Below are positions 9,842 through 47,809 of a stretch of 64,000 bases of DNA, piece by piece. The number at the start of each line of letters is the position of its first letter. Position 1 is the stretch's first letter. The notes beneath the pieces are model-generated. The model was not told the origin of the DNA and ran no database searches. It saw only the letters and a program-made list of their open reading frames with translations. The stretch is from contig OY970166.1 in NCBI GenBank assembly GCA_963706595.1, forward strand, positions 4,864,001 to 4,928,000, in the 5' to 3' direction. Position numbers and translations under genes: made by a program. This stretch comes from an uncultured cyanobacterium. GTDB lineage: Bacteria > Cyanobacteriota > Cyanobacteriia > Cyanobacteriales > Nostocaceae.

Positions 9842-10045
9842 TTAACACAACCGTTTAGCTTCCACAGTTAACGGTAAACTTGCTTTATCTGGTAATGCAC
9901 TAAATTCTAATTCCCAACCATTTGCTAAAGTGAGAACCACCCCATCGTTACTATCCGCTTGTTTAACAACTTCTTCTTCCAGGTCTTTTTTGGCAACATA
10001 AGCCACCAAAGTTCCCGCATCATTCATCCGTAACATTACTTTCAT
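9842..10045 (-). CDS. nifT: NifT/FixU
   Basis: MKVMLR...YVAKKDLEEEVV...LANGWEL; follows nifV-nifZ. Confidence 0.9.
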   Translation of the reverse strand: MKVMLRMNDAGTLVAYVAKKDLEEEVVKQADSNDGVVLTLANGWELEFSALPDKASLPLTVEAKRLC

Positions 10046-10308
10046 GAATTCTCCTCAACCGCTTCTAGTTCTCTTTTCCGACAACCGACAACAAAGCCTT
10101 TCTCTAAAAAATGCACTGCATAGATATAGGAATTTTGTAAATAAGTGCCTATACTTGCTATGTAGCCAATATCCCCTTTGTTCCCTAACACCTCCCCGAC
10201 TTCTCTCCCCGCAAACGTCCCATCATTTTTGATCAGTTTGCGAAGTCTGACTTTTTGACCAATTTCAAAAAAGGGGGGTAAATTTAGCTCTAATTCATCA
10301 GGTTGCAT
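10042..10308 (-). CDS. nifZ: NifZ
   Basis: IKNDGTFAG...GTYLQ..YIYAVHF...VVGCR..EL. Confidence 0.92.
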
Positions 10309-11437
10309 GAGAGTACCTCTGTTCTCTTACCAAATTCAAAAGTTCTTCAACGGTCAAATTGCGTTTTTGCTTCACCGACTGCTGGCGGACTGCATCCAAG
10401 ACAGACTGGGTTTCCTCAGCGTCCAGGAAAATATCATTTTGCTGTAGCAAGCTTGTCACCAAATGTCTTCCAGAATGCTTACCCACGACTAAACGCCGTT
10501 CACAACCGACTTCTTCCGGTGCAAATGGTTCGTAAGTCAGGGGGTTTTGCAGTACGCCGTGAGCATGGATTCCTGATTCATGAGCAAAGGTATTTTCACC
10601 CACAATCGCTTTCCAAGGTGGAACATGACAATTGGATGCTGAAGCTACCAGTTGGGAAAGTTCCAACAAACGGCGAGTATCAATCCCCAAATTGATGCCA
10701 TAGATGCGTTTAATAGACATGACAACTTCTTCTAAAGCTGCATTTCCCGCCCTTTCGCCTACCCCGTTGACTGTGGTATTTACAGATGTAGCTCCGGCTT
10801 TGATACCAGCTAAGGCGTTAGCAGTGGCCAAGCCAAAATCATTGTGAGTGTGAATTTCCAGGGGAATGGACAAAGCTGAAACTAGCTGTTTCACTTTGGC
10901 GTAGGTGCTGAAGGGGTCGAGAACGCCCACAGTATCGCAAAAGCGGAACCGCGATGCGCCCCATTCTTGAGCATTAAGCGCTACATCTAGAAGGAAATTG
11001 GGGTCAGCTCTAGAAGAATCTTCGCCGCCTACTGCTACCCAAAGACCTTGATCAACTGCAAAGCTAATACAGTCTTTGAGTCTTTGCAAACTTACTCGCC
11101 ATTGACCATGAAATTTTGCAGCGATGTGGATTCCCGAAACGGGGATGGCGATATGTACTCGTTTCAACCCGCAGGTGATGGAAGCTTTAATATCGGAAAT
11201 CACCGCCCGATTCCAACCGAGAAGACTGGCTTGCAAACCCAAGTCAGATATTGCTAAGATAGCGTGGGTTTCGGCTTCGCCCATTGCGGGAATTCCCACT
11301 TCTAGTTCGGGAACGCCAATGGCATCGAGAAATTGAGCGATCGCTATTTTCTCTTCAAAGGTAAAAGCAACACCCGCCGCTTGTTCACCATCACGTAATG
11401 TAGTGTCATTAATTAAGATTTCATTCATCTCACACAT
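10298..11437 (-). CDS. nifV: Homocitrate synthase (start may be ATG 11428)
   Basis: [31 protein letters not shown]; nifVZT context. Confidence 0.93.
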
Positions 11438-11870
11438 CCCTTTTAGGAATCATTCTTAATATGTTTTCTGCTGTGGTAGCTTATTTACCTGAAAATTCTG
11501 GAATGGTAAATGCCTAATACAAATGCTGATAACTGGCGTGGGTAGCTATTATGATGAATGGTAAATGCTATAAACTCTCAGATTTAATAGTTCATGTTCA
11601 TGATTATTAAATCATAGCTAAATTCCCACATCATATCTGTATGGCAGAGAACCAAATATGGGTATATTTTAGAATTATTTTTACTATTGCTAAATCAGGT
11701 ATTTTATAATAGCGAGTTGTTAATCTAACTATTAGCAAATCTCCAATACAGCAAAATAGTAAAGATAGCAAGAAAGTTAGTGGATATAGTGGTTTGCTCG
11801 GATAGTAATACGTCATTTAGTTGTGGTCATCTGGACAATCTAATAGACTGGAAGTCTGAGAAAAAATTTG

Positions 11871-12068
11871 TTAGTGATGGTCATCTAGCCAATCAAGAAT
11901 CTGCTCTAGTTGCGCCAAGTTAACCAGTCCATATTGCCAAAGGAGCATGGGTAAGGGACCATTATCAAATTTACGATGTCGTTGGGCTACAGCAATATCT
12001 GCATTTGTTAGTTCGAGTTCTTGATGTAAAAAATTGAGAAGTTTTCTCTCACTATTACAGGTGGTCAT
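11871..12068 (-). CDS. DUF2949-family small protein
   Basis: GPLPMLLWQYGLVNLAQLEQILDWL. The ORF-track N-terminus is STRR sequence, so the start is set at MTTCNS. Confidence 0.75.
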   Translation of the reverse strand: MTTCNSERKLLNFLHQELELTNADIAVAQRHRKFDNGPLPMLLWQYGLVNLAQLEQILDWLDDHH

Positions 12069-12146
12069 ACAATTTTGGATTTTAGATTTTAGATTTTGGA
12101 TTGACCTCACAGATAAATCTGGGGGTATATGACGCAGAGGGGGAAT

Positions 12147-12401
12147 TTAGGAGTTTTGTGTATTCCAGCAACGTTCTAGCCAATCTATTAGTTCGTGACG
12201 AGAGGCGAGAAATTGCATGAGGGTACTGCGGATGAGGATGGCTTCGAGGAGGTTACTGACTTTGACTCGTAAGGAACCATCGCTGTGACAGCAGCAGGGG
12301 ATCATTAATTCTTGCAAACGCTGGGAAATTCGCCAGCGATCGCACAAGGGAATCTGCAAAACCTGATAGCCAAGGGGGTCGGAACTATTTGGTGGGAACA
12401 T
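12147..12401 (-). CDS. Asr1405/Asl0597-family protein
   Basis: DRWRISQRLQELMIPCCC..DGSLRV...RHELIDWLERCW; sits directly after nifP. Confidence 0.75.
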   Translation of the reverse strand: MFPPNSSDPLGYQVLQIPLCDRWRISQRLQELMIPCCCHSDGSLRVKVSNLLEAILIRSTLMQFLASRHELIDWLERCWNTQNS

Positions 12402-12403
12402 GA

Positions 12404-13189
12404 TTAATGATTTTTTGTCAACAGTTCTTTGTCCTGGGGTTGAATATTCAGGGTTTGTAATTGTTGTTCTAGTTTCTCGATGCGGGAGAGTAAAGAACTA
12501 ATTACAGTCGCTTGTTCATCCGGAAGTTTTCCATGTTCTAGGGGATGAACGTTAGCGTTTGGTTTGGGGGAGATAATTCTACCAGGAATCCCGACAACGG
12601 TTGCATCTGGGGGAACATCACGCAACACAATTGAACCCGCACCAATGCGGACGCGATCGCTAATTTGAATATTTCCCAAAACTTTTGCACCCGCACCCAC
12701 CACAACGTTATTACCCACCGTAGGATGACGCTTACCACTTTCTTTACCAGTACCGCCCAGAGTCACACCCTGATAAATTAGCGTATAATTTCCCACAATG
12801 GCAGTTTCACCAATCACCACACCCATACCGTGGTCGATAAACACACCTTTACCAATCTCTGCACCTGGGTGAATTTCAATTCCTGTCAAAAATCGCGCCA
12901 GATGAGAAATCAGACGGGGGATGAAACCCACACCCCGACAGTGTAACCAGTGGGCGAGACGATGCAAACAGAGAGCGTGTAACCCTGGGTAGCAAAACAC
13001 CACCTCTAGCCAATTCCGTGCTGCTGGGTCGCGTTCAAAGATGATTTTAAAATCACTCAATAGTGGTTCTAAAAAAGCACCAGAGAACAGATTTTTCAGC
13101 AAGGATGTATTTGGAGAACGTGGTTTGATTGCAGCCTGACGGTTTTTGATACTGTTTAATGACTGTTGCATCGGTAGTGTTTGGTTCAA
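12404..13189 (-). CDS. cysE: Serine O-acetyltransferase (nif-associated NifP)
   Basis: DPAAR, hexapeptide repeats, GGTGKESGKRHPTVG, HPLEHGKLPD. True start may be ATG 13171. Confidence 0.92.
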   Translation of the reverse strand: MNQTLPMQQSLNSIKNRQAAIKPRSPNTSLLKNLFSGAFLEPLLSDFKIIFERDPAARNWLEVVFCYPGLHALCLHRLAHWLHCRGVGFIPRLISHLARFLTGIEIHPGAEIGKGVFIDHGMGVVIGETAIVGNYTLIYQGVTLGGTGKESGKRHPTVGNNVVVGAGAKVLGNIQISDRVRIGAGSIVLRDVPPDATVVGIPGRIISPKPNANVHPLEHGKLPDEQATVISSLLSRIEKLEQQLQTLNIQPQDKELLTKNH

Positions 13190-14034: not shown

Positions 14035-14886
14035 ATGAAAAAGCAAAAAAATACATTCAGCCATCTCACCGCCATAGAAAGAACTTACTTATCATTTCCA
14101 GCACAGTTTTTATTAAATCAAAACCTGCTTCAAGGTAAAATACTAGATTTTGGTTGTGGCTTTGGTAATGATGTAAAAATCCTCAGCCAAAAAGGGTTGG
14201 ATATTACAGGTTATGACCCGCATTATTTTAACCAATATCCTGAAGGTAAATTCGATACTATAATTTGCTTTTATGTATTAAACGTATTATTCCCTGAAGA
14301 ACAAGCTAATATCCTCATGGAAGTATCCCATTTATTAAAACCAGGAGGTAAAGCTTATTATGCTGTGAGGAGGGATATCAAGAGAGAAGGATTTAGAGAA
14401 CATTATATCCACAAAAAACCTACATATCAATGTCTAGCCAAACTTCCCTTTCATTCATTATACGCAGATGAGATGCGAGAAGTATATGAATACATTCATT
14501 ATAATCAACAGCGAAATTCAACTAATTATTGTATATTTTGTAATCCTCATAAACATCTGAGATTATTAACAGAATCGGCAACTGCTTATGCTATGTTAGA
14601 TGGCTACCCTATAAGTAAAGGACATACTTTAGTTATTCCTAAACGTCATATTAGCAATTATTTTGATTTACCATTTAAAGAACAGTCTGCTTGCTGGTTT
14701 ATGGTGAATAAAGTCCAAGAAATGCTCAAAGCAGAATTTGCCCCAGATGGTTTTAATGTAGGTATGAACATTAATCGAGAAGGTGGGCAGAATATTATGC
14801 ACACCAGTATTCATGTTATCCCTCGTTACAAAGGCGATGCTATTGGTAAAAGTGGTATTAGAAAAGTTATTCCTAAAAGTAAATAG
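14035..14886 (+). CDS. Class I SAM methyltransferase-HIT family fusion protein
   Basis: ILDFGCGFG (SAM motif I); C-terminal CIFC, PISKGHTLVIPKRH, GFNVGMN, GQNIMHTSIHVIPRY. Confidence 0.85.
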   Translation: MKKQKNTFSHLTAIERTYLSFPAQFLLNQNLLQGKILDFGCGFGNDVKILSQKGLDITGYDPHYFNQYPEGKFDTIICFYVLNVLFPEEQANILMEVSHLLKPGGKAYYAVRRDIKREGFREHYIHKKPTYQCLAKLPFHSLYADEMREVYEYIHYNQQRNSTNYCIFCNPHKHLRLLTESATAYAMLDGYPISKGHTLVIPKRHISNYFDLPFKEQSACWFMVNKVQEMLKAEFAPDGFNVGMNINREGGQNIMHTSIHVIPRYKGDAIGKSGIRKVIPKSK

Positions 14887-14920
14887 TTATATAGCAATTT
14901 TCAAGAAGTTACGAACCCAA

Positions 14921-14953
14921 AGATCCCCGACTTCTTGAAGAAGTCGGGGATCT
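14921..14953. terminator. Palindromic dispersed repeat, probable bidirectional terminator
   Basis: AGATCCCCGACTTCTTGAAGAAGTCGGGGATCT between convergent genes; identical copy at 52967-52999, also between convergent genes. Confidence 0.65.
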
Positions 14954-14957
14954 AAAT

Positions 14958-15176
14958 TCATGCTACTTGTGATGACTCTTCTAGACTGTGCGGTTCTGGT
15001 AGAGATTCACCATTTTCCAAAGCTGTATCAATGAACATTTCTAAAACTTCTTGAGCATTTTTGCAAGCTTCTTCATAGGTATCTCCGTGAGTGTGACAAA
15101 ACTCTCCCCATTCAGGAAGACTGACTACAAAACATTCATCTTCCTCAGACCATTGAATAATAATTGTATATTTCAT
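14958..15176 (-). CDS. HicB-family antitoxin (no hicA seen)
   Basis: YTIIIQWSEEDECFVVSLPEW...HTHGDTYEEACKNAQEVLE...LPEP; ATGA overlap with the NACHT stop. Confidence 0.85.
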   Translation of the reverse strand: MKYTIIIQWSEEDECFVVSLPEWGEFCHTHGDTYEEACKNAQEVLEMFIDTALENGESLPEPHSLEESSQVA

Positions 15177-18100
15177 TCTTTTTCTTCTCCCCTCCGCTTT
15201 AAAATCTTCTGAGCATACTTCCGCACTTCCTCCTGAGCATACTTCCGCACTTCCTCATCTGGGTCATTTTCTGCTCTATCGCACAACAGTGAAGAAGTCT
15301 GGGGATGCTGAGGATATTGCTTGATAATTATCTCCAGTGCAATGCGCCGAGGGTTTTCGTTCAACATACCCAACATAACCAACATACCTCCACTCTCACA
15401 GGGGTCATTGACAGCACAATTGTAATAGATATCAAATAACTCAGGCTGTTCTCTAAAATATTTGCCTAATGCTTGGATGGCTGCACGTCGCACATATTCA
15501 CTATCATCAGACGCGCGTTGTTGGAGGATGGTTTTGGTTTGGGGGTCATCTTTGTAATTGCTGGCTAATGCTTCGATGGCTCTACGTCGCACATCCGAAT
15601 TATCATCATCAGACGCGCGTTGTTGGAGGATGGTTTTGGTTTGGGGGTCATCTTTGTAATTGCTGGCTAATGCTTCGATGGCTCTACGTCGCACATCCGA
15701 ATTATCATCATCAGTGGCGCGTTGTTGGAGGATGGTTTTGGTTTGGGGGTCATCTTTGTAATTGCTGGCTAATGCTTCGATGGCTCTACGTCGCACATAT
15801 TCACTATCATCATCAGTGGCGCGTTGTTGGAGGATGGTTTTGGTTTGGGGGTCATCTTTGTAATTGCTGGCTAATGCTTCGATGGCTGCACCTCGCACAT
15901 TCCACTTATCATCATCAGTGGCGCGTTGTTGGAGGATGGTTTTGGTTTGGGGGTCATCTTTGTAATTGCTGGCTAATGCTTCGATGGCTGCACCTCGCAC
16001 ATCCGAACGTTCATCATCAGAGGCGCGTTGTTGGAGGATGGTTTTGGTTTGGGGGTCATCTTTGTAATTGCTGGCTAATGCTTCGATGGCTGCACCTCGC
16101 ACATTCCACTTATCATCATCAGTGGCGCGTTGTTGGAGGATGGTTTTGGTTTGGGGGTCATCTTTGTAATTGCTGGCTAATGCTTCGATGGCTGCACCTC
16201 GCACATCCGAACGTTCATCATCAGAGGCGCGTTGTTGGAGGATGGTTTTGGTTTGGGGGTCATTTTTGTAATTGCTGGCTAATGCTTCGATGGCTGCACC
16301 TCGCACATCCGAATTATCATCATCAGTGGCGCGTTGTTGGAGGATGGTTTTGGTTTGGGGGTCATCTTTGTAATTGCTGGCTAATGCTTCGATGGCTCCA
16401 CGTCGCACATCATTATCATCATCATCAGTGGCGCGTTGTTGGAGGATGGTTTTGGTTTGGGGGTCATCTTTGTAATTGCTGGCTAATGCTTCGATGGCTC
16501 CACGTCGCACAAACTCACTATTATCATCATCAGTGGCGCGTTGTTGGAGGATGGTTTTGGTTTGGGGGTCATCTTTGTAATTGCTGGCTAATGCTTCGAT
16601 GGCTCCACGTCGCACATTCCACTTATCATCATCAGTGGCGCGTTGTTGGAGGATGGTTTTGGTTTGGGGGTCATCTTTGTAATTGCTGGCTAATGCTTCG
16701 ATGGCTGCACCTCGCACAAACTCACTATTATCATCAGTGGCGCGTTGTTGGAGGATGGTTTTGGTTTGGGGGTCATCTTTGTAATTGCTGGCTAATGCTT
16801 CGATGGCTGCACGTCGCACATCCCACTTATCATCATCAGTGGCGCGTTGTTGGAGGAAGGTTTTGGTTTGGGGGTCATCTTTGTAATTGCTGGCTAATGC
16901 TTCGATGGCTGCACGTCGCACATCCCACTTATCATCATCAGTGGCGCGTTGTTGGAGGAAGGTTTTGGTTTGGGGGTCATCTTTGTAATTGCTGGCTAAT
17001 GCTTCGATGGCTCTACGTCGCACATCTTCACTATCATCATCAGTGGCGCGTTGTTGGAGGAAGGTTTTGGTTTGGGGGTCATCGTCCCAAGTCGTTGCAA
17101 TTGCTACAAATGCTTGAGTGCGAATTTCTTGAACTAGCTTAGTTTCAGTTTCCTTTCCAGAACGAATAATAAAACCAATAAATGAGTTGGAATCATTGTA
17201 ATAATACCAAAGGTCATATTTAGTTAACTCTTTTAGCCGATTAAATAATTTATTAGCTGTATCCGCAATTACAGAACGATTTCTCACTTCTGTAAGACAT
17301 TTAGCTGCCAAAAAGAGGTTGATAAATTTTTCTTGTTCACCATCTTGCTTTCTTAAATAATCAAGAATTTCGCCAACAAATTCTGCCTCAATCATTCCCG
17401 CAATTAACAGCAATACTTCATGCCAAGATTCATCTTGCCAGTGCTTGCCAAAAACATCGTCTTTTAATGCTTCTATGCTAATACCATTTGTAGTTCCTCT
17501 CTTTTCAAACCGCTTCACAAATTCGGAAGCACAGAAAAATTCCAAAAATGTCCGATGCACAAAGGCATAATAATCTGCACCTAAAAAACATAAAATAAAA
17601 TTGCGATCGCGCAGTTGTTTCATCAACCGCCTGGCTTTATCTCTAACATCATGTACTGGGATGCTTTGCAGATATTCAGTGAAGATTGCTTCTAAATCAT
17701 CTGCATATATAATATTGCCAGCTAAACCTTTTTCACTGGTTTGCATTTGATAAGCAACTTGACGCAGCATTGCCTGTTTATCTTTATAATCGATACTGTC
17801 CAGACGTTCATCTGGTTTTAAATTACGTCCTTCATCCCAATTATGCAGCAGCACCTCTGAAGCATCTTTATAAAGTTCACTTCTATCTCTAGGTAATTCT
17901 CGTTTGAGATTGAGAATTGCCATCATGGTTAACAGCAGAGGATTACGTGCTAGTTCACCGATAGCTTTTGATTCATTAATTACTCTTTGTAGACGTTCGC
18001 GTTTGATATTTTTATCAAGGTCTTCGGCTTTATTAAAAGTTTTATCATGCCAGCGTTTGATAAAGTCTTTAATTTGTTCTGGTTCTAAATCCTGCAACAT

Positions 18101-19390
18101 GAAGTGGCGAAATTCTGCATCTTTTAACTGTTGTTGCTTATAGCCGATAATCCTAGAAGTAACGATTACCTGCACATCTGGATATTCATTAGTGAAGCGA
18201 TGAATACAGGTAATTACTTCTTCCCGTTTCGTAGGTTCAAATATTTCATCCAAACCATCAAACATCACTAAAGCGTTACCAGCCTTTAGCTGCTCATGCA
18301 ATTTATGCTGATTGAGATGAAAGCAGCAATTCGGTCCTTTATGGTAATATTCTAGAAAATCTTTACAATCTCCGGTATCGCGATCGCGTACATAATTGCG
18401 TAATTCAATTAGCAAAGGAATTGGCAGATTATAATCATTATGTTCGAGAGTTTTTTGTACCCAATCTAATGCTAAGTATTGCAATAATGTAGACTTGCCA
18501 GAACCAGGATCACCTAAAATAACTAGATAATTCCTGCGTTGTTTGTCTCTAATAATATCTAATACTGAACGAATTTGTTGTTCCAAATAATTCCGTTTAT
18601 AGCCTTCTAAACCTTCTTTTATGTTTTCTAGTTCAAGTTCCGCATCTAATTGGTTACTCTCTTGTAGCCTACGGAGATATTCTTTAGGCAGTTCTGGTAA
18701 AACCTGATAAACTTGACGCACATTTTGGGGAATGAAAATTTGCCATAAATTTACTGGATGTTCGCGTGCTGTAGTCTCTAAACTATCTAACTTTAAATTG
18801 CCGTAACGTTCACGAATAGTTTCTAAATATTTGGGCAAATCAAAATCTGTAGGAATACCAGCGATTTCTTGCAGACTGTCTTTAGCTGCTTCCAAATGTT
18901 GGGAATCTAAAACAGGGCGTAGCTTATCTGATTCTCGAATAATTGCTTTAACTTTTCTCAAATACGGCTTACTCAGTTTTTCCCATTTAAAATTATTTGG
19001 TAGAATAGGCAAATTCATTTGATTCCAAGTATTGGCTAATACTTGGAATTCTAAATTTTGGCAGTCTGGACGAAAAGGAGCGCCTAAAATCTCTTTGATA
19101 TCTGGATTATCAATAAATTGTTTGAAAGGGTGAATATATTTTTTAATTTCGGCTTCTTCTAAATCTGCATCTTCTAATTCATGTTGCATCAGTGCGAGAA
19201 ATTCTTTCAAGGCTTTACCAGCAGCAATTTCAATATCTTCTTTTTTGAGTTTATCTAAAAAGCGCTGAGGAATGCTTTTTAAGTAGTCTTTAGCCCAGTC
19301 CTTAGCGATATCTTTAGCTAAGTCCTCAAAAATCGGTTTAAAAATAAAGCCGACAGCCTGAGTAACACCCCAAATAGCTAACCAATCCAT
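15173..19390 (-). CDS. NACHT NTPase with C-terminal HEAT repeats (bacterial NLR-like STAND protein)
   Basis: Walker A GDPGSGKS, Walker B MFDGLDE, IVTSR, NPLLLT, FVHRTFLEFF, W.EVLLL; then 15 complete 34-35-aa HEAT-like repeats. Confidence 0.9.
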   Translation of the reverse strand: MDWLAIWGVTQAVGFIFKPIFEDLAKDIAKDWAKDYLKSIPQRFLDKLKKEDIEIAAGKALKEFLALMQHELEDADLEEAEIKKYIHPFKQFIDNPDIKEILGAPFRPDCQNLEFQVLANTWNQMNLPILPNNFKWEKLSKPYLRKVKAIIRESDKLRPVLDSQHLEAAKDSLQEIAGIPTDFDLPKYLETIRERYGNLKLDSLETTAREHPVNLWQIFIPQNVRQVYQVLPELPKEYLRRLQESNQLDAELELENIKEGLEGYKRNYLEQQIRSVLDIIRDKQRRNYLVILGDPGSGKSTLLQYLALDWVQKTLEHNDYNLPIPLLIELRNYVRDRDTGDCKDFLEYYHKGPNCCFHLNQHKLHEQLKAGNALVMFDGLDEIFEPTKREEVITCIHRFTNEYPDVQVIVTSRIIGYKQQQLKDAEFRHFMLQDLEPEQIKDFIKRWHDKTFNKAEDLDKNIKRERLQRVINESKAIGELARNPLLLTMMAILNLKRELPRDRSELYKDASEVLLHNWDEGRNLKPDERLDSIDYKDKQAMLRQVAYQMQTSEKGLAGNIIYADDLEAIFTEYLQSIPVHDVRDKARRLMKQLRDRNFILCFLGADYYAFVHRTFLEFFCASEFVKRFEKRGTTNGISIEALKDDVFGKHWQDESWHEVLLLIAGMIEAEFVGEILDYLRKQDGEQEKFINLFLAAKCLTEVRNRSVIADTANKLFNRLKELTKYDLWYYYNDSNSFIGFIIRSGKETETKLVQEIRTQAFVAIATTWDDDPQTKTFLQQRATDDDSEDVRRRAIEALASNYKDDPQTKTFLQQRATDDDKWDVRRAAIEALASNYKDDPQTKTFLQQRATDDDKWDVRRAAIEALASNYKDDPQTKTILQQRATDDNSEFVRGAAIEALASNYKDDPQTKTILQQRATDDDKWNVRRGAIEALASNYKDDPQTKTILQQRATDDDNSEFVRRGAIEALASNYKDDPQTKTILQQRATDDDDNDVRRGAIEALASNYKDDPQTKTILQQRATDDDNSDVRGAAIEALASNYKNDPQTKTILQQRASDDERSDVRGAAIEALASNYKDDPQTKTILQQRATDDDKWNVRGAAIEALASNYKDDPQTKTILQQRASDDERSDVRGAAIEALASNYKDDPQTKTILQQRATDDDKWNVRGAAIEALASNYKDDPQTKTILQQRATDDDSEYVRRRAIEALASNYKDDPQTKTILQQRATDDDNSDVRRRAIEALASNYKDDPQTKTILQQRASDDDNSDVRRRAIEALASNYKDDPQTKTILQQRASDDSEYVRRAAIQALGKYFREQPELFDIYYNCAVNDPCESGGMLVMLGMLNENPRRIALEIIIKQYPQHPQTSSLLCDRAENDPDEEVRKYAQEEVRKYAQKILKRRGEEKE
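15470..17085 (-). repeat. Intragenic tandem repeat, about 102-bp unit, 15 full copies plus partial ends
   Basis: Unit encodes DDxxxxVRxxAIEALASNYKDDPQTKT(I/F)LQQRA(T/S); DNA near-identical outside two variable blocks. Confidence 0.95.
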
Positions 19391-19978
19391 AATACTTGTA
19401 TTTGTTGCGATTTTAACTACGATTATATACGTAGATTACCTGATATTCCTGTTTTTCAGGATAATTACAGAAATATCTGGTATTATTTGCACTTAGCCTT
19501 AAGTCTGGGGTAATCAGATCAACAGTACAAATAGAAGCTGCGATTACCACAATCATTGAACCCCTCCCCCAACCCCTCCCCGCAAGCGAGGAGGGGAGAC
19601 ATAGCAGAGGTTTGGCGGGTTTAGTCAGTATTCAACCGGAATTGATATTAAACCTGGGATTCACTCTCGTTCAGCGTTGGTCACATCAAGCTAAATCTAT
19701 AGTATGCGATCGCCTCTGCAAATACATCTATACTTTCATGATATACAACGTATTTTTACTTAAGCCACCGGATTAAAATCAACTTATTCTGACATTTTAT
19801 TTAAATCACCACACTTTTAAATACACAATGTTACAATTAAGACTAGATTTATTACAAAATCTCAACCGAGTCATTACCAATAAGCTACAATTTATTTTTA
19901 TTTATAAATAAGCTCACTTGATCATAAATAAAAGTATCTCGCGCAGTCATAGCCTTAAATAAAAACAGGAGTGATATT

Positions 19979-21403
19979 GTGTTTAACTCAGGGCAAATAT
20001 TACAAGAAAGATATCAACTGCAAAAACAGTTAGGTCATACGATGGCTGGTCGTCAAACTTGGCTAGCAGAAGATTTAAATAATGCAAATCATGAGTTAGT
20101 AATTCTCAAACTTCTGGTTTTTAGTAATGACTTTCAATGGGAAGACTTGAAATTATTTGAGCGAGAAGCCCAAGTTTTACAAAATCTCACTCACGAGAGA
20201 ATACCCCGCTACCGTGATTACTTTTTAGTTGAGCAGCAGCCAGGATATGCTCTTAGTTGGTGGTGCTTAGTACAAGATTATATTCCTGGTTCCACTTTAC
20301 AAGATTTGTTAGCAGAAGGTAAAAAATTTACTGAGCCAGAACTCAAAAAAATTGCTAAAGAAATTTTGCAGATTTTAATTTATCTCCACCAATTAAATCC
20401 AGCCGTTCTCCATCGGGATATTAAACCCAGTAACTTAATTCAAGGTGAAGATAAACAGATATATCTCGTGGATTTTGGGGCGGTACAAGACAGAATGGCT
20501 GTCACACGCTTAACTTTTACTGTGGTGGGTACTGTTGGCTATACTCCAATGGAACAGTTTTGGGGACGTGCTGTACCAGCTTCTGATTTATATGGTTTGG
20601 GAGCTACTTTAATTCATTTACTCACAGGTGTAGCTCCTGCTGATTTACCTCAGAATAATTTGCGAATTCAATTTGCAGATTATACCAATATCAGTGCTAA
20701 TTTTGTTGAGTGGATTGAAAAACTAATTGAACCAGCTTTAGAAAAAAGATTTGCTACCGCCAAGGAAGCTCTTGAGTTACTTTTTCAGAAAGTCCAATCT
20801 AATTCTAGTCAAACTTTTCCCACAAAAAAAAGTCCACCTATACACTTAATTAGACCTTTTCTTGTGGTAAATAAAAAGTCTCCAGAAGAATTAGAAATTT
20901 ATAGATATAAAGAACCAATAGCATATAAAAAAATGCTGATTTGTTTTCAAATATTTTTGTTTATAACTGGGGGAATTGAATTGCTGGCGATTATTGGTTT
21001 CACTATGTTAATCTGGGTAATACTTAGATCGAAGATACTAGATGATTCAACCAACAAAGAAATTGATGTATTAATCAAGAAAATTTTCAGTAAAGATGTT
21101 AATGCCATTAAAAAAGATAATTATGGTGGTTATATCCGTTTTGATGCTAAAGAGAAACGTTTTATATTTCAGAACTCCTGGTTTGGCAAATTTGAGTCAA
21201 GTTCTGACTTGATTACAAATATTCGCTCTATTTATGTATGTCAACGAAATGAAAGTTCTTCTAATCAATTTTCAACAGGAGCTAACAACTGGCAAGTAGT
21301 TATTAGCACATATCGTCATCGTATTCGTTTAAATTGGCGCTTGAATGAGGAAGAATGTGGTTGGTTAGTTCATGAAATTCAGACTTGGCTCAATCAATCT
21401 TGA
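19979..21403 (+). CDS. Hanks-type Ser/Thr protein kinase with TM region
   Basis: VILK, FEREA, HRDIKPSN, DFG, GTVGYTPMEQ, SDLYGLG; hydrophobic segment around aa 320-350; GTG start. Confidence 0.9.
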   Translation: MFNSGQILQERYQLQKQLGHTMAGRQTWLAEDLNNANHELVILKLLVFSNDFQWEDLKLFEREAQVLQNLTHERIPRYRDYFLVEQQPGYALSWWCLVQDYIPGSTLQDLLAEGKKFTEPELKKIAKEILQILIYLHQLNPAVLHRDIKPSNLIQGEDKQIYLVDFGAVQDRMAVTRLTFTVVGTVGYTPMEQFWGRAVPASDLYGLGATLIHLLTGVAPADLPQNNLRIQFADYTNISANFVEWIEKLIEPALEKRFATAKEALELLFQKVQSNSSQTFPTKKSPPIHLIRPFLVVNKKSPEELEIYRYKEPIAYKKMLICFQIFLFITGGIELLAIIGFTMLIWVILRSKILDDSTNKEIDVLIKKIFSKDVNAIKKDNYGGYIRFDAKEKRFIFQNSWFGKFESSSDLITNIRSIYVCQRNESSSNQFSTGANNWQVVISTYRHRIRLNWRLNEEECGWLVHEIQTWLNQS

Positions 21404-22397: not shown

Positions 22398-23306
22398 TTA
22401 TTTTCTTCTGGCTGTAATATAATCGGCGATCGCCATCAGAGGTTGTGCCTTCTCGCCAAAATCAACAAGTTCAGCCTTAGCGAGTTCCACTAATTCTTGG
22501 CTCTTGCGTTGTGATTCCTCAATTCCCCACAAACTCGGATAGGTTACTTTTTGTGCCTTCTGGTCTTTACCTGGAGTTTTTCCGAGTTCTTCTTGTGTAC
22601 CCGTGACATCTAAAATATCATCAACAATTTGAAAAGCCAGACCAATGTAGGAAGCATAGCGAGAAAGCTTTTGCAGCAGTTCGTTGTCAGCCCCCGCCAG
22701 CAGCGCACCAGAGAGAACCGAAGTTTCTAACAAAGCTCCTGTTTTGTGTGAATGAATAAAATTGAGGGTTTCTATATTAATATTCTCTAATCCTTCACAT
22801 TCGAGATCAACAACTTGACCACCGACTAAACCCGTAGCTGCGATCGCATGAGCCAACTTAGCAATCACTTGCACTAATTGGTTTGGTGGAACTCCTTGAG
22901 TTTCAACCACAATAAACTCAAAAGCATAGCTTAAAAGTGCATCCCCCGCCAGAATAGCCACTGGTTCACCATAAACCTGATGATTAGTTAATTTTCCCCG
23001 GCGATAATCATCATTATCCATTGCTGGTAAATCATCATGGATCAGCGAAAAAGTATGAATCATTTCCAAAGCACAAGCAGTAGGCATTGCCATCTCTACT
23101 GTGCCTCCTGCCAATTCACAGCTAGCTAAACAGAGAATTGGGCGCAGGCGTTTTCCCCCAGCCAATAAAGAATAACGCATGGATTCATAGAGTGTTTCTG
23201 GATAGATCACACTAATTGAACTTTCAAGACTTGCTTCCACAAGTTCGCGCCGTTGCGATAAATAGGACTTTAAATCAAGTTCCAGAATTTGAGTATTCAA
23301 CATCAA
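22398..23306 (-). CDS. Short-chain polyprenyl diphosphate synthase (CrtE-like, predicted FPP synthase)
   Basis: [55 protein letters not shown]. Confidence 0.9.
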
Positions 23307-23689
23307 TTATTCTCCTTAACACTTTTTCAAAATTTAATTGAAATGAAATATGCAAACTATAGCCGTTCCTAATCACATGAGTTATGTCATAGCCCCCTCC
23401 TCGCTTGCGGGGAGGGGGTTGGGGGTGGGGTTCAAGTACCTAGCAGACTAGGAAACGCTATAAGTAAGTTGAGGACTTCCAAGAAATAAATTATCCGGAT
23501 TAACGTTAGCGTAGCTTGCCGAAGGCTACCACAGAGGCGCAGAGGACACAGAGGAATCAGGGTTTGAGAGATTTTGTACGTTAGGTGGTTGAGTGTTTTT
23601 TTATTTGGAAGTCCCTTAACTCAGGACTAAAGTCCTGAAAACTACAAACCCTTAATTATTCACCACGACTTACTGCAAGATTTTTCAAC

Positions 23690-25096
23690 TTATCGCCCAA
23701 TTTGCACATCTTCCAGAACCCCCAGAGCATCAGGGATGAGAACAGCAGCCGAGTAATAAGCAGAGACGAGATAGGAAATAATCGCCTTTTCGCTAATGCC
23801 CATAAATCGCACAGACAAGCTCGGTTGATACTCATCCGGAATACCAGTTTTATGTAAACCGATCACACCCTGATCTTCTTCCCCACTCCGAAGCACAAGA
23901 ATAGAGCTAGTTTGGTGATCAGAAATAGGTATCTTATTGCAAGGAAGTAAAGGTACACCCCGCCAAGCCATCACCATCTGTCCATCCAGATCAATATTCT
24001 GTGGATACAGACCCAAGCGATTGCATTCTCGACGAAAAGCCGCAATAGTCCGAGGGTGAGCTAGGAAAAACTTCGACTTTCTCCGACGGGTGAGAAGCTC
24101 GTCAAGGTCATCAGGAGTGGGCGCTCCCGTACGACTGTAGATGCGTTGTTTGAGGTCAGCATTGTGCAGCAACCCGAATTGACGGTTATTGATCAACTCA
24201 TATTCTTGACGTTCCCGTAATGCCTCAATAGTCAACCGCAATTGTTGTTCAGTCTGGTTCATCGGTTCATTGTACAAATCCGCCACCCGACTATGCACCT
24301 GCAACACAGTTTGAGCAACACTCAACTCATATTCACGAGGTGAAAGTTCGTAATCAACAAAAGTGGACGGCAACTCAGTCTCCCCAATATGCCCCGCAGC
24401 CAAATCAATAGAAGCTTCACCGTGCTTATTTTGTGGGATTTCTGCACGACTCCTAAACTGATCAACTTGAGCCTGCAACTCCTCAGACTGGTTGAGCAAC
24501 TCCCGAAACACCTGAGCAGGTAGCGCCAATACAGTACATCGCGTAATAGCCTTAATCGTGAACTTCCAACTGCCTTGTGACTCCAGCAAAACCTGCTCGC
24601 CGAAATAGTCGCCGTCTGCGAGTATCCCCAAATTCGCCGGTTCGTCATACTTACCAGCACGAATCTTTTCTACCCTGCCATGTGCGATCAGAAAAAGCTG
24701 GTCGGCAGACTCACCAGACTGCACTATGATCTCACCAGGTGCAAACTCCTGTTGCACAAACCGACCTGCCAAAGCGCTCAACACCTGGGTGTCCTCAAAT
24801 CCTCGCAGTAATGGCAACTCACAAAGTTCCTGGGGAATCACCTGGACATCAGATCCAGTGTTAGTAAAAGTCAATCGCCCATCACCAACTTTATAAGTCA
24901 ACCGCCGGTTCACCCGATAAGAACCACCTTTCATCTCCACCCACGGCAAAATCTTCAACAACCACCGCGATGTAATTTCCTGCATCTGCGGTGCAGATTT
25001 GGTTGTCGTCGCCAAATTTCTGGCTGCGGCTGTACTCAAACTCAATTGAGGTTGTCCACTCTCAGCATTCAAATCTAAATCATTAGAATACGTCAT
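23690..25096 (-). CDS. Family 2B encapsulin shell protein with cNMP-binding insertion (geosmin operon 'cnb' gene 2)
   Basis: [35 protein letters not shown], cNMP domain (GDYFGE), [29 protein letters not shown]. Confidence 0.9.
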
Positions 25097-25258
25097 TATA
25101 GCATTTCCTAGTTTAATAAATTACACAATTATCTGCGTTTATTTGCGTCCATCTGCGTTTAATTATTACTGCTTGTACCTCACTGGAATGGCAATTGCTA
25201 TCAGAGGTGAAGGTGATCAATTTGAGATTTTAGATTGACCTTCACCTCTTAAGAATAA

Positions 25259-26668
25259 TTAACGCCCGATTTCGACATCTTCCAAGATGCCAAGTGCGTC
25301 AGGTACTAGGACAGCTGCGGAATAGTAGGCTGTGATCAGGTAAGAGATAATCGCCTTCTCACTGATGCCCATGAATCGCACAGACAAACTGGGTTGGTAT
25401 TCATCGGGGATACCAGTTTGATGTAGACCGATCACCCCTTGTTTTTCTACACCAGTGCGGACTAAGAGAATCGAACTAGTGCGGGTATTGGTGATGGGGA
25501 TCTTGTTGGAAGGAAAGATGGGTATTCCACGCCAAGCTGGAACTTGGTGTCCGCCCATGTCAATGCTTTGTGGATAGATGCCCAGGCGGTTACACTCACG
25601 AGCAAAGGCAGCGATCGTGCGGGGATGAGCCAGGAAGAATCCCGGATCTTTCCAGACTGTAGCCAGCAGTTCATCCATGTCATCCGGGGTAGGCGCTCCG
25701 TTGCGAGTGTGGATGCGTTGTTTGAGATCAGCGTTGTGCAGTAACCCAAATTCGCGGTTATTGAGCAACTCATGCTCTTGACGTTCCCGTAATGCCTCAA
25801 TAGTCAGCCGCAGTTGTTGTTCGGTCTGATTCATCGGTTCGTTGTACAAATCAGCTATGCGAGTATGCACTCGTAACACGGTTTGAGCAACGCTTAATTC
25901 ATATTGCCGAGGCGAGAGTTCGTAATCAACAAAAGTTCCTGGTAACTGAGTTTCCCCAATATGTCCTGAAGCCAAATCAATAGATGATTCCCCGGCGGCA
26001 TTCTGTGGCTGATTCAGGCGGACTCGGAACTGCTCAACATGAGTTCGCAACGCCTCCGACTGGTCAATCATCTGCTCAAACGCCTGTTGAGGCAGCGCCA
26101 TTACTGTACATCTGGTAACAGCTGTGAGGGTAAATTCCCAAGTATCCTGCGATCGCACCACAGACTCATCGCCGAAATGGTCTCCGTTGGCTAACACATC
26201 CAAGACGATCGGCTCACCATATTTTCCGAGGCCAATCTTGTTCACCTTACCGTGGGCAATCAATAACACCTGATCAGCCGGTTGACCAATTTCAACAATT
26301 ACATCCCCGGCGGCAAACTCTTGCTGCACAAACTGGTTTGCCAAGGCGCTCAACACCTCAATGTCATCAAAGCCTCGCAGCAATGGTAACTCACAAAGTT
26401 CCTGGGGAATTACCTGTATATCAGCTCCAGTGTTGGTAAAAGTTACCCGCCCGTCACCAACTGCATAACTCAACCGGCGGTTAACTCGATACACACCACC
26501 CTTCGTCTGTACCCACGGCAACAGTTTCAACAACCACCGGGATGTAATTTCCTGCATCTGCGGTGCTGATTTGGTCGTTGTCGCCAAATTACGCGCTGCG
26601 GCTGTACCCAAACTGAGTTGGGGCTGCTGTTCTTCAACATTCAAACCGGAATCATTAGAAAAGGTCAT
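25259..26668 (-). CDS. Family 2B encapsulin shell protein with cNMP-binding insertion (geosmin operon 'cnb' gene 1)
   Basis: Same motifs as its paralogue, but [16 protein letters not shown] where the paralogue has [15 protein letters not shown]. Confidence 0.9.
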
Positions 26669-26708
26669 AAACTTGTTCCTTGTTGTTCTAAATACTAAAA
26701 AAAGAAAT

Positions 26709-28988
<2,280 letters not shown>

Positions 28989-40320: not shown

Positions 40321-40575
40321 CTAATTTTTAACTGAGTAATATCTTCAAAAGTAGGGTGTGTTGTCCCGTGGAGCAACGCACCACAGCAATAATTTTCTAG
40401 ATTGCGATCGCCTAACTTTTAACTGAGTGATATCTTCAAAAGTAGGGTGTGTTGTCGCGTAGCGCAACGCACCGCAGCAATAATTTTCTATATTGCGATC
40501 GCCTAACTTTTAACTGAGTGATATCCTCAAAAGTAGGGTGTGTTGTCGCATAGCGCAACGCACCGCAGCAATAAT
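40321..40575 (+). repeat. Tandem 91-bp units, each carrying a GTAG-type REP (3 copies)
   Basis: REPs GTAGGGTGTGTTGTCGCGTAGCGCAACGCACC (variants) start at 40351, 40442 and 40533; HIP1 at the unit junctions (40404-40411, 40495-40502). Confidence 0.9.
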
Positions 40576-47691: not shown

Positions 47692-47809
47692 GAAGATGCG
47701 ATGAATCCGCAGAAGAAGACGCGATGAATCCGCAGAAGAAGATGCGATGAATCCGCAGAAGAAGATGCGATGAATCCGCAGAAGAAGACGCGATGAATCG
47801 CGTCTCTAC
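47692..47809 (+). repeat. 23-bp tandem repeat (x4) ending in a palindromic dispersed repeat
   Basis: GAAGA(T/C)GCGATGAATCCGCAGAA x4, then GAAGACGCGATGAATCGCGTCTCTAC; same palindrome family at about 33500 and 45642. Confidence 0.85.

Follow-up and report, generated by a model that had tools for sequence, protein, structure and literature searches.

A homogenised HEAT-like array in an NNH2-NACHT protein of a Nostocaceae cyanobacterium: a candidate recombination-diversified receptor

The gene and its repeat array

The window considered here is a stretch of 64,000 nucleotides (nt) from an uncultured cyanobacterium of the family Nostocaceae (GenBank assembly GCA_963706595.1, contig OY970166.1, positions 4,864,001 to 4,928,000, forward strand). 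On its minus strand lies a gene for a protein of 1405 amino acids (aa) with the build of a NOD-like receptor (NLR), in which an NNH2 domain and a NACHT NTPase domain precede a long array of nearly identical HEAT-like repeats. Its parts, in window coordinates, are as follows.

15173..19390 (-), NNH2-NACHT-HEAT gene; open reading frame without interruption, 1405 aa, intact
19322..19390 (-), N-terminal segment (aa 1-23) not covered by the Pfam match; one acidic residue followed by some 14 hydrophobic residues without charge; a candidate membrane-inserting helix
18773..19321 (-), NNH2 domain (PF22734), aa 24-206; helical throughout
18044..18529 (-), NACHT NTPase domain, aa 288-449; PF05729, expect value (E) 2.8e-14, over the cut-off
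18491-18514 (-), Walker A motif, same as the family consensus
18245-18268 (-), Walker B motif, same as the family consensus
17084..18043 (-), helical region following the NTPase domain (aa 450-769), conserved in the alignment; presumably the helical/winged-helix part of the NACHT module
15452..17083 (-), homogenised HEAT-like array (alpha-solenoid); 15 full units (15551-17083) and a terminal unit
17024..17032 (-), variable block of unit 1 (positions 18-20), recurring in every unit
17012..17017 (-), variable dipeptide of unit 1 (positions 23-24), recurring in every unit
15819..16264 (-), two-unit duplication (RSD-KWN)x2; exact over 242 nt, lag 204
15176..15451 (-), C-terminal cap; contains an insertion of 18 nt and a tandem duplication of 24 nt (15209-15256), both missing from four congeners

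A first-pass annotation of the window, made from the sequence without database searches, had described the N-terminal 180 or so residues as unrecognised. Pfam names them: the match to NNH2 covers the complete model (1-181 of 181) with E 8.8e-63 and 211.7 bits against a cut-off of 27, and it is found in 65 of 65 aligned relatives. HEAT_2 is matched in the protein besides NNH2 and NACHT, so that the layout is that of the bacterial NACHT (bNACHT) proteins, with an N-terminal effector or adaptor, a central NACHT module with intact Walker A and B motifs, and C-terminal superstructure-forming repeats. The same three families recur together in ESM Atlas clusters of 56-299 cyanobacterial proteins, and HEAT_2 occurs in 36 of 44 long NNH2 proteins of a hand-picked set. 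Other sensors are also attached to NNH2: the proteins P0031, P0044, P0083 and P0099 carry TPR or GUN4 domains, and one of them is fused to a reverse transcriptase domain, perhaps by intron insertion.

Tandem Repeats Finder delimits the array at 15466-17083 (period 102, 15.9 copies, 93% matches). It consists of 15 full units (aa 770-1280), fourteen of 34 aa and one of 35 aa, followed by a terminal unit of 33 aa; the only length changes are single codons in a run of Asp. The mean pairwise nucleotide identity of the full units, 0.934, exceeds the criterion of about 85% used for high internal conservation (HIC), and the 15 near-identical repeats reported in the first-pass annotation are thereby borne out in an intact frame. 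Its reading of the variable residues was exact as well, both for the block (SED, KWD, KWD, SEF, KWN, SEF, DND, NSD, RSD, KWN, RSD, KWN, SEY, NSD, NSD) and for the dipeptide (RR, RA, GA or RG), and the two-unit duplication that it pointed out is present. The concentration of variation in these two places holds in the main, as 13 of 17 variable columns fall within positions 17-24 (scan permutation, 3 of 100,000); lesser variation is also present at positions 1, 8, 13, 14 and 17.

The block and the dipeptide had been said to re-assort independently. By the four-gamete test, 18 of 30 column pairs that join the two are incompatible, compared with 2 of 45 pairs inside the block and 0 of 3 inside the dipeptide, which requires exchange or repeated mutation between the two, and their association is not significant (p=0.084). 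However, "independently" is too simple a word, because the dipeptide alleles run in tracts (neighbouring units identical in 9 of 14 cases, p=0.0006), whereas those of the block do not (2 of 14, p=0.34). This difference suggests local duplication of units overlaid by short conversion of the block.

Selection, fold and turnover

The relatives of the gene were collected by a genome scan (at least 567 stretches confirmed, 80 loci kept) and a metagenome scan (70 loci), from which 57 distinct genes with at least four internal units were analysed, leaving out those with fewer units, contig breaks or gaps. The identity of the framework, outside the variable sites, is at least 0.83 in 38 of them and below 0.76 in 16; with 0.986, the window gene is the most homogenised of the 57, and its array is among the three longest. 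At positions 18, 19, 20, 23 and 24 of the window gene, the nonsynonymous and synonymous differences per site (pN/pS) are 0.415/0.073, as against 0.013/0.015 in its framework. In the 37 other homogenised genes the same five sites give mean values of 0.358/0.095, with pN above pS in 36 of 37, and the framework gives 0.080/0.167, with pN below pS in 30 of 37; among the 16 non-homogenised genes, pN exceeds pS at the five sites in just 4. The excess of pN at the variable positions is seen in the relatives as well. The third codon base is nearly frozen while the first and second vary: it is T at position 20 in 132 of 139 gene-codon types and at position 23 in 118 of 128, and A at positions 24 (82 of 86) and 27 (91 of 102). 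Arg at position 23 is encoded by CGT in 34 of 37 gene-codon types, compared with 23% genome-wide.

The nearest framework of a unit lies in its own gene for 265 of 327 units of homogenised genes and for 50 of 144 units of the non-homogenised ones. In 17 disjoint gene pairs with NACHT cores 91-98% identical we compared the ordered five-residue codes of the units: in none of the 14 homogenised pairs does the shared fraction exceed 0.17, whereas in two of the three non-homogenised pairs it is 0.92. Thus, the framework is homogenised gene by gene, five residues around the start of the second helix of the unit (helix B) vary faster than synonymous sites, the blocks reassort, and whole arrays are rewritten between close relatives. 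A separate clade (L073, L089, L098, L103, L109, L112 and L114) has non-homogenised arrays, with the order of repeats kept across several genera, and may represent a frozen counterpart that binds a conserved ligand.

Modelled from the single sequence, aa 751-1405 form a solenoid of two-helix units (mean predicted local distance difference test score, pLDDT, 82, and about 90 over most of the array) that resembles PP2A-A, CAND1 and importins. According to DSSP on this model, helix B begins at position 19, so the residues that had been called a loop block cap the N-terminus of this helix and make up its first turn. Among eight sequence matches in the PDB, five are alphaRep or similar synthetic repeat proteins (alphaRep E 7e-6 to 3e-3). 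The variable positions of alphaRep, 18, 19, 22, 23, 26 and 30, form a concave binding face (PMC3754942). When the two units are aligned on the Val-Arg anchor, these correspond to positions 19, 20, 23, 24, 27 and 31 here, and in the 37 other homogenised genes they are the variable helix positions, with a variability moment at 100 degrees that is significant (p=0.011). As far as the model and the alignment can tell, the variable residues lie on one helical face and match the alphaRep binding positions, as would be expected of a sensor surface.

Between the same flanking genes, five of the 11 genomes from the genus carry the NLR gene and six, two of them single contigs, lack it. Its orthologues differ in the number of units (16 here, 10 in G009) and in the blocks, some block codons being common to them. 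The identity along the protein shifts from one relative to another: over aa 1-160 it is 0.84-0.97 with G006 and 0.54-0.61 with G008, whereas over aa 201-640 it is 0.93-0.99 with G008 and mostly 0.62-0.81 with G006, and all four combinations of two NNH2 types with two NACHT types are found. The NLR gene is thus a mosaic of domains that has been gained, lost and shuffled at one site. The immediate neighbours in the window are:

14035..14886 (+), methyltransferase-HIT gene, bounding the syntenic site on the left
14958..15176 (-), HicB-like antitoxin gene, 72 aa, overlapping the NLR stop codon; hicA partner absent at the site
19979..21403 (+), Ser/Thr kinase gene, bounding the syntenic site on the right

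At the corresponding place of the NLR-less genome G003 stands an intact hicA-like gene, which is gapped in G005 and 5'-truncated in G002 and G010 (L185-L188), and at other loci hicA often begins 19 bp past the NLR. We considered HicAB as an obligate effector and rejected it, because among 62 complete NLR genes HicB is next in 29 and HicA in just 19. The commonest neighbours in 79 loci are Uma2 (32 of 79) and HicB-like genes (31 of 79), and no dedicated effector partner is conserved across these loci. A promoter scan upstream of the NLR returned 2 sites with 2.4 expected. Short palindromic elements, of which there are dozens of copies per genome of the genus, flank the gene on both sides (14890-14955 and 19540-19650) and could help its deletion. 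The flank at 10042-13189, adjoining the site, holds genes that we take to be nifZ, nifV and cysE/nifP, and this flank is common to five other loci. Further away, at 22398-28979, are genes for a polyprenyl synthase, two SrpI-like encapsulins with cyclic nucleotide (cNMP)-binding domains and a two-domain terpene synthase (the copy at 23690 was scanned), presumably a geosmin cluster; tandem repeats are also present at 40321-40575 (91-nt unit, 2.8 copies) and 47692-47799 (23-nt unit, 4.7 copies).

Elsewhere in the same genome (G000, contig C1) there are further arrays of this kind, the unit types among the NACHT-HEAT genes being three independent ones. L191 (1696211-1700347, minus strand) encodes a NACHT-like protein of 1379 aa with 16 homogenised HEAT units of 31 aa, the length of the alphaRep unit, which vary at the alphaRep binding positions, and with a C-terminal calcineurin-like phosphoesterase; it is a cleaner case of an alphaRep library in nature, and its effector is an enzyme. 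L192 (3092327-3096607, plus strand) encodes a protein of 1427 aa with the architecture EAD4-NACHT-HEAT-NCC-H-NCAB1 and about 15 homogenised, surface-variable units of 35 aa. Eight arrays judged by eye to be TPR-like (near 176k, 327k, 1527k and 2363k) or WD40-like (near 2965k, 3590k, 4243k and 5082k) are homogenised and coding, with few variable sites, and four of them lie in frames with a Walker A motif. These other arrays make the window gene less singular and the mechanism more general.

A diversified receptor and its alternatives

We consider it probable that in filamentous cyanobacteria this gene serves as an intracellular receptor of the NLR type that generates its own diversity, a recombination-diversified sensor similar to HET-E. 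The recombination-diversified sensor surface proposed in the first-pass annotation is supported by the four-gamete incompatibilities, the excess of pN in the relatives, the geometry of one face, its agreement with the positions that bind in alphaRep, and the turnover of arrays; the unrecognised effector or adaptor that completed that proposal has given way to NNH2. The roles of RecA and of the NACHT activation cycle are those generally known for such families. Very probably, units that pair out of register undergo unequal exchange of the RecA type and short tracts of gene conversion, which keep the frame homogeneous and mix the blocks anew, while selection maintains the diversity of the sensor surface. 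The surface would then bind a protein of foreign origin, with phage as its most likely source, and switch NACHT to an ATP-bound oligomer, a step that we regard as rather likely. It is conceivable, if somewhat doubtful, that clustered NNH2 domains would expose their hydrophobic first helix and damage the membrane, so that the infected cell is killed or isolated and the filament spared; otherwise NNH2 would be an adaptor. Tandem pairs of NNH2-NACHT genes at L028:5470-11128 and L034:4606-9337, in which the upstream gene is almost devoid of repeats, suggest a pairing of sensor and helper.

The lead towards a membrane effector comes from the extreme N-terminus. Within the modelled NNH2 region, hydrophobicity peaks over residues 1-18 (mean hydropathy 1.01), and Asp or Glu at positions 2-4 followed by a nearly uncharged stretch is found in all 79 motif-bearing N-termini of the 103 examined. 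An acidic residue at position 2-3 with a hydrophobic first helix has been given as the signature of HeLo, MLKL, RPW8, Rx_N and Bell (bioRxiv 10.1101/2020.01.06.895854). Searches for a related family or fold gave no clear match for NNH2 (predicted model, pLDDT 82): a fold search over 48,161 chains gave weak rows with a best Z of 5.4 and none standing out, and MLKL, HeLo and CC are absent among the 50 matches listed; Foldseek returned no match at E<=0.001 in the PDB or viral models; and of the 106 Pfam families matched weakly, the top 25 include none of the death-domain kind. The signature should be taken as a lead to membrane effectors, not as homology.

Several observations weigh against the receptor reading or narrow it. 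Three non-receptor arrays of the genome are homogenised too, with pN below pS overall, so that homogenisation is not specific to receptors (the sites of these control arrays were chosen on their own variability, which makes their ratios descriptive). The five sites were chosen on the window gene, hence only the other genes test them; pN/pS was calculated pairwise by Nei-Gojobori on related, recombining units, pS at five codons comes from few sites, and related genes are not independent of one another. The last point applies equally to the 17 gene pairs, three of which involve duplicate records. The geometry is indirect, being read from DSSP assignments, a helical-wheel calculation and aligned sequences rather than from coordinates. 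The first helix is moderately hydrophobic, with a median best 19-residue Kyte-Doolittle value of 1.26 and 9 of 65 relatives reaching 1.6. No PADLOC model covers the 1405-aa protein (best E 5.7e-6, partial). Finally, no strain of the same species was found, the best sequencing run sharing 0.13 of words, and no RNA data set was listed as holding the sequence; all comparisons of arrays are between species.

Among other explanations of a functional array, the one with most to recommend it, though unlikely, is a diversified receptor with a ligand other than phage, which would serve non-self recognition between filaments or the detection of fungal parasites, predators or symbiotic partners. The nearest working analogue, the fungal HET-E/D/R group, governs allorecognition (PMC4986451, PMC13449251), NACHT genes are enriched in multicellular bacteria (bioRxiv 10.1101/2022.07.19.500537), and many of the relatives are labelled as lichen or soil-crust cyanobacteria. 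However, the bacterial NACHT proteins tested to date are anti-phage, according to the same preprint, and no polymorphic partner gene is conserved beside the NLR in the 79 loci. The repeat unit itself had 0 matches in 50,697 records of phage genomes. Less probable still is a guard model, in which the array binds a host protein, e.g. a component of phycobilisomes or chaperones, and reports its disturbance. Guarding has been proposed for such sensors (bioRxiv 10.1101/2022.07.19.500537), the repeats resemble the phycobilisome (PBS)-lyase HEAT proteins NblB and CpcF, below their cut-offs, and the clade with non-homogenised arrays does keep a fixed order across genera, but a conserved host target leaves unexplained why the surface is rewritten between genes with NACHT cores 96-98% identical.

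We regard each of the remaining explanations as improbable. A neutral recent expansion of one unit, with a hotspot of mutation or slippage at the run of GAT codons, would account for length changes confined to that run, for the other micro-duplications of the allele and for the homogenised control arrays. It is largely refuted, since only the first and second bases of codons change, the changes extend to position 27, away from the run, and show helical periodicity, pN>pS recurs in 36 of 37 genes while the control arrays have pN<pS overall, and identical block codons are common to other species. An artefact of assembly, either of the array or of its length and order, is less probable again: the index holds no reads of the source strain and arrays are broken or gapped in several relatives, but the genome is a single contig without N, the frame is kept through every unit, block codons are common to congeners and many relatives have complete arrays. 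In addition, a sequencing run of a related strain (X2) has a summed depth of 3252 on one unit as against 247 on unique DNA, which is a hint and not a copy number, and four of its contigs join unit end to unit start, again as a hint. The least credible of all is that the variation stems from a diversity-generating retroelement or from the copying of silent cassettes that act as donors. NNT codons do dominate at positions 18, 20 and 23, and the genome has five reverse-transcriptase matches. Yet a template search tolerant of adenine changes gave 0 matches outside the array, the third-base A frozen at positions 24 and 27 argues against adenine mutagenesis, no second copy or paralogue of the unit exists in the genome to act as donor, and the 30 neighbour clusters met most often include no recognisable reverse transcriptase (judged by N-termini; 9 scanned).

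The recombination-diversified receptor may also be put in a bolder form, which we think rather unlikely: filamentous cyanobacteria would maintain natural, alphaRep-like libraries of NACHT-HEAT receptors, in which the shuffling of repeats creates new binding surfaces fast enough for cells or strains of a single population to differ, and which in this family are wired to a membrane-targeting NNH2 death domain. If true, this would be an anticipatory route to receptor diversity in bacteria that does without reverse transcriptase, parallel to fungal HET-E.

Comparison with known systems

The architecture itself has already been catalogued. Kibby et al. (bioRxiv 10.1101/2022.07.19.500537) list NNH and HEAT architectures among bNACHT proteins, and other members of the group are anti-phage, in line with the first-pass annotation. 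Our gene shares with the HEAT-sensor type (PF22734+PF05729+PF13646) the tripartite layout, the intact Walker motifs, the NNH2 front and the HEAT sensor, whereas the accessible portions of that account describe no homogenisation of repeats, no selection or turnover and no function of NNH2. Homogenised WD and TPR repeats have been noted in bacterial NLRs, including those of cyanobacteria, with a proposal of rapid diversification (bioRxiv 10.1101/2020.01.06.895854), and a 2026 survey extends them to ANK, TPR, WD40 and LRR (PMC13449251); in the portions available, neither covers HEAT or gives per-site selection or turnover data for bacteria. We found no report of homogenised HEAT arrays in bacterial NACHT proteins, in a search that covers few subscription papers; the portions seen of PMC13581612 and PMC7159879 have nothing on the NNH2-NACHT-HEAT family, and NNH2 and HEAT_2 are absent from 7 supplement files of PMC13581612. 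What is new is therefore the family-wide per-site pN/pS, the turnover of arrays, the presence and absence of the gene and its mosaicism. They bear on the wider question of how bacterial NLRs keep pace with phages: repeat shuffling had been proposed for bacteria, and the per-site measurement and the HEAT sensors are new within the literature searched. Diversification by retroelements is described for some sensors.

NNH2 resembles the domains of the HeLo/HELL/MLKL/RPW8/Rx_N/Bell group in its early acidic residue, hydrophobic helix and position as a helical domain at the N-terminus of an NLR (bioRxiv 10.1101/2020.01.06.895854), but the likeness is confined to the first helix, with no significant match of family or fold. 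Nonetheless, a named domain without a solved fold thereby gains a testable role. The sensor finds its counterpart in alphaRep and its PBS-lyase HEAT-like parents (PMC3754942; PDB 3LTJ, 3LTM, 4JW2 and 4JW3), with which it has in common the helix-2 motif and the variable positions on the concave face, and the alphaRep library was likewise made by polymerising repeat units (PMC3754942). The alphaRep unit has 31 aa compared with 34 aa here, its positions 26 and 30 (27 and 31 here) vary whereas they are fixed in the 15 full units of this allele, and alphaRep proteins are artificial binders, while the present array is natural and fused to a NACHT switch. Evolution thus varies the same positions that protein engineers picked for alphaRep binders, and in this family alleles occur in nature by the dozen with a switch that hardly differs among them, so that their specificity is testable by swaps of single repeats.

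The closest parallel is with the fungal HIC NLRs, i.e. HET-E/D/R (the HNWD family) and the Podospora proteins with ANK, TPR or HEAT repeats, as HEAT cases also occur among fungal NLRs (PMC4986451, PMC13449251). Near-identical repeats, few hypervariable surface positions and diversifying selection are common to both, as are repeat shuffling, change in repeat number, domain shuffling and a fixed order in relatives of low conservation (PMC4986451, PMC13449251). In Podospora internal conservation and length polymorphism go together, the same contrast that separates homogenised from non-homogenised cyanobacterial arrays (PMC13449251). The HNWD proteins combine WD40 with HET and exchange repeats between paralogues, whereas here HEAT is combined with NNH2 in a bacterial gene of single copy with no paralogue, and the polymorphism of the array is seen between species only, unlike in the fungal NLRs. 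The cyanobacterial gene therefore lies outside the HNWD family, yet it probably works like a fungal HIC NLR.

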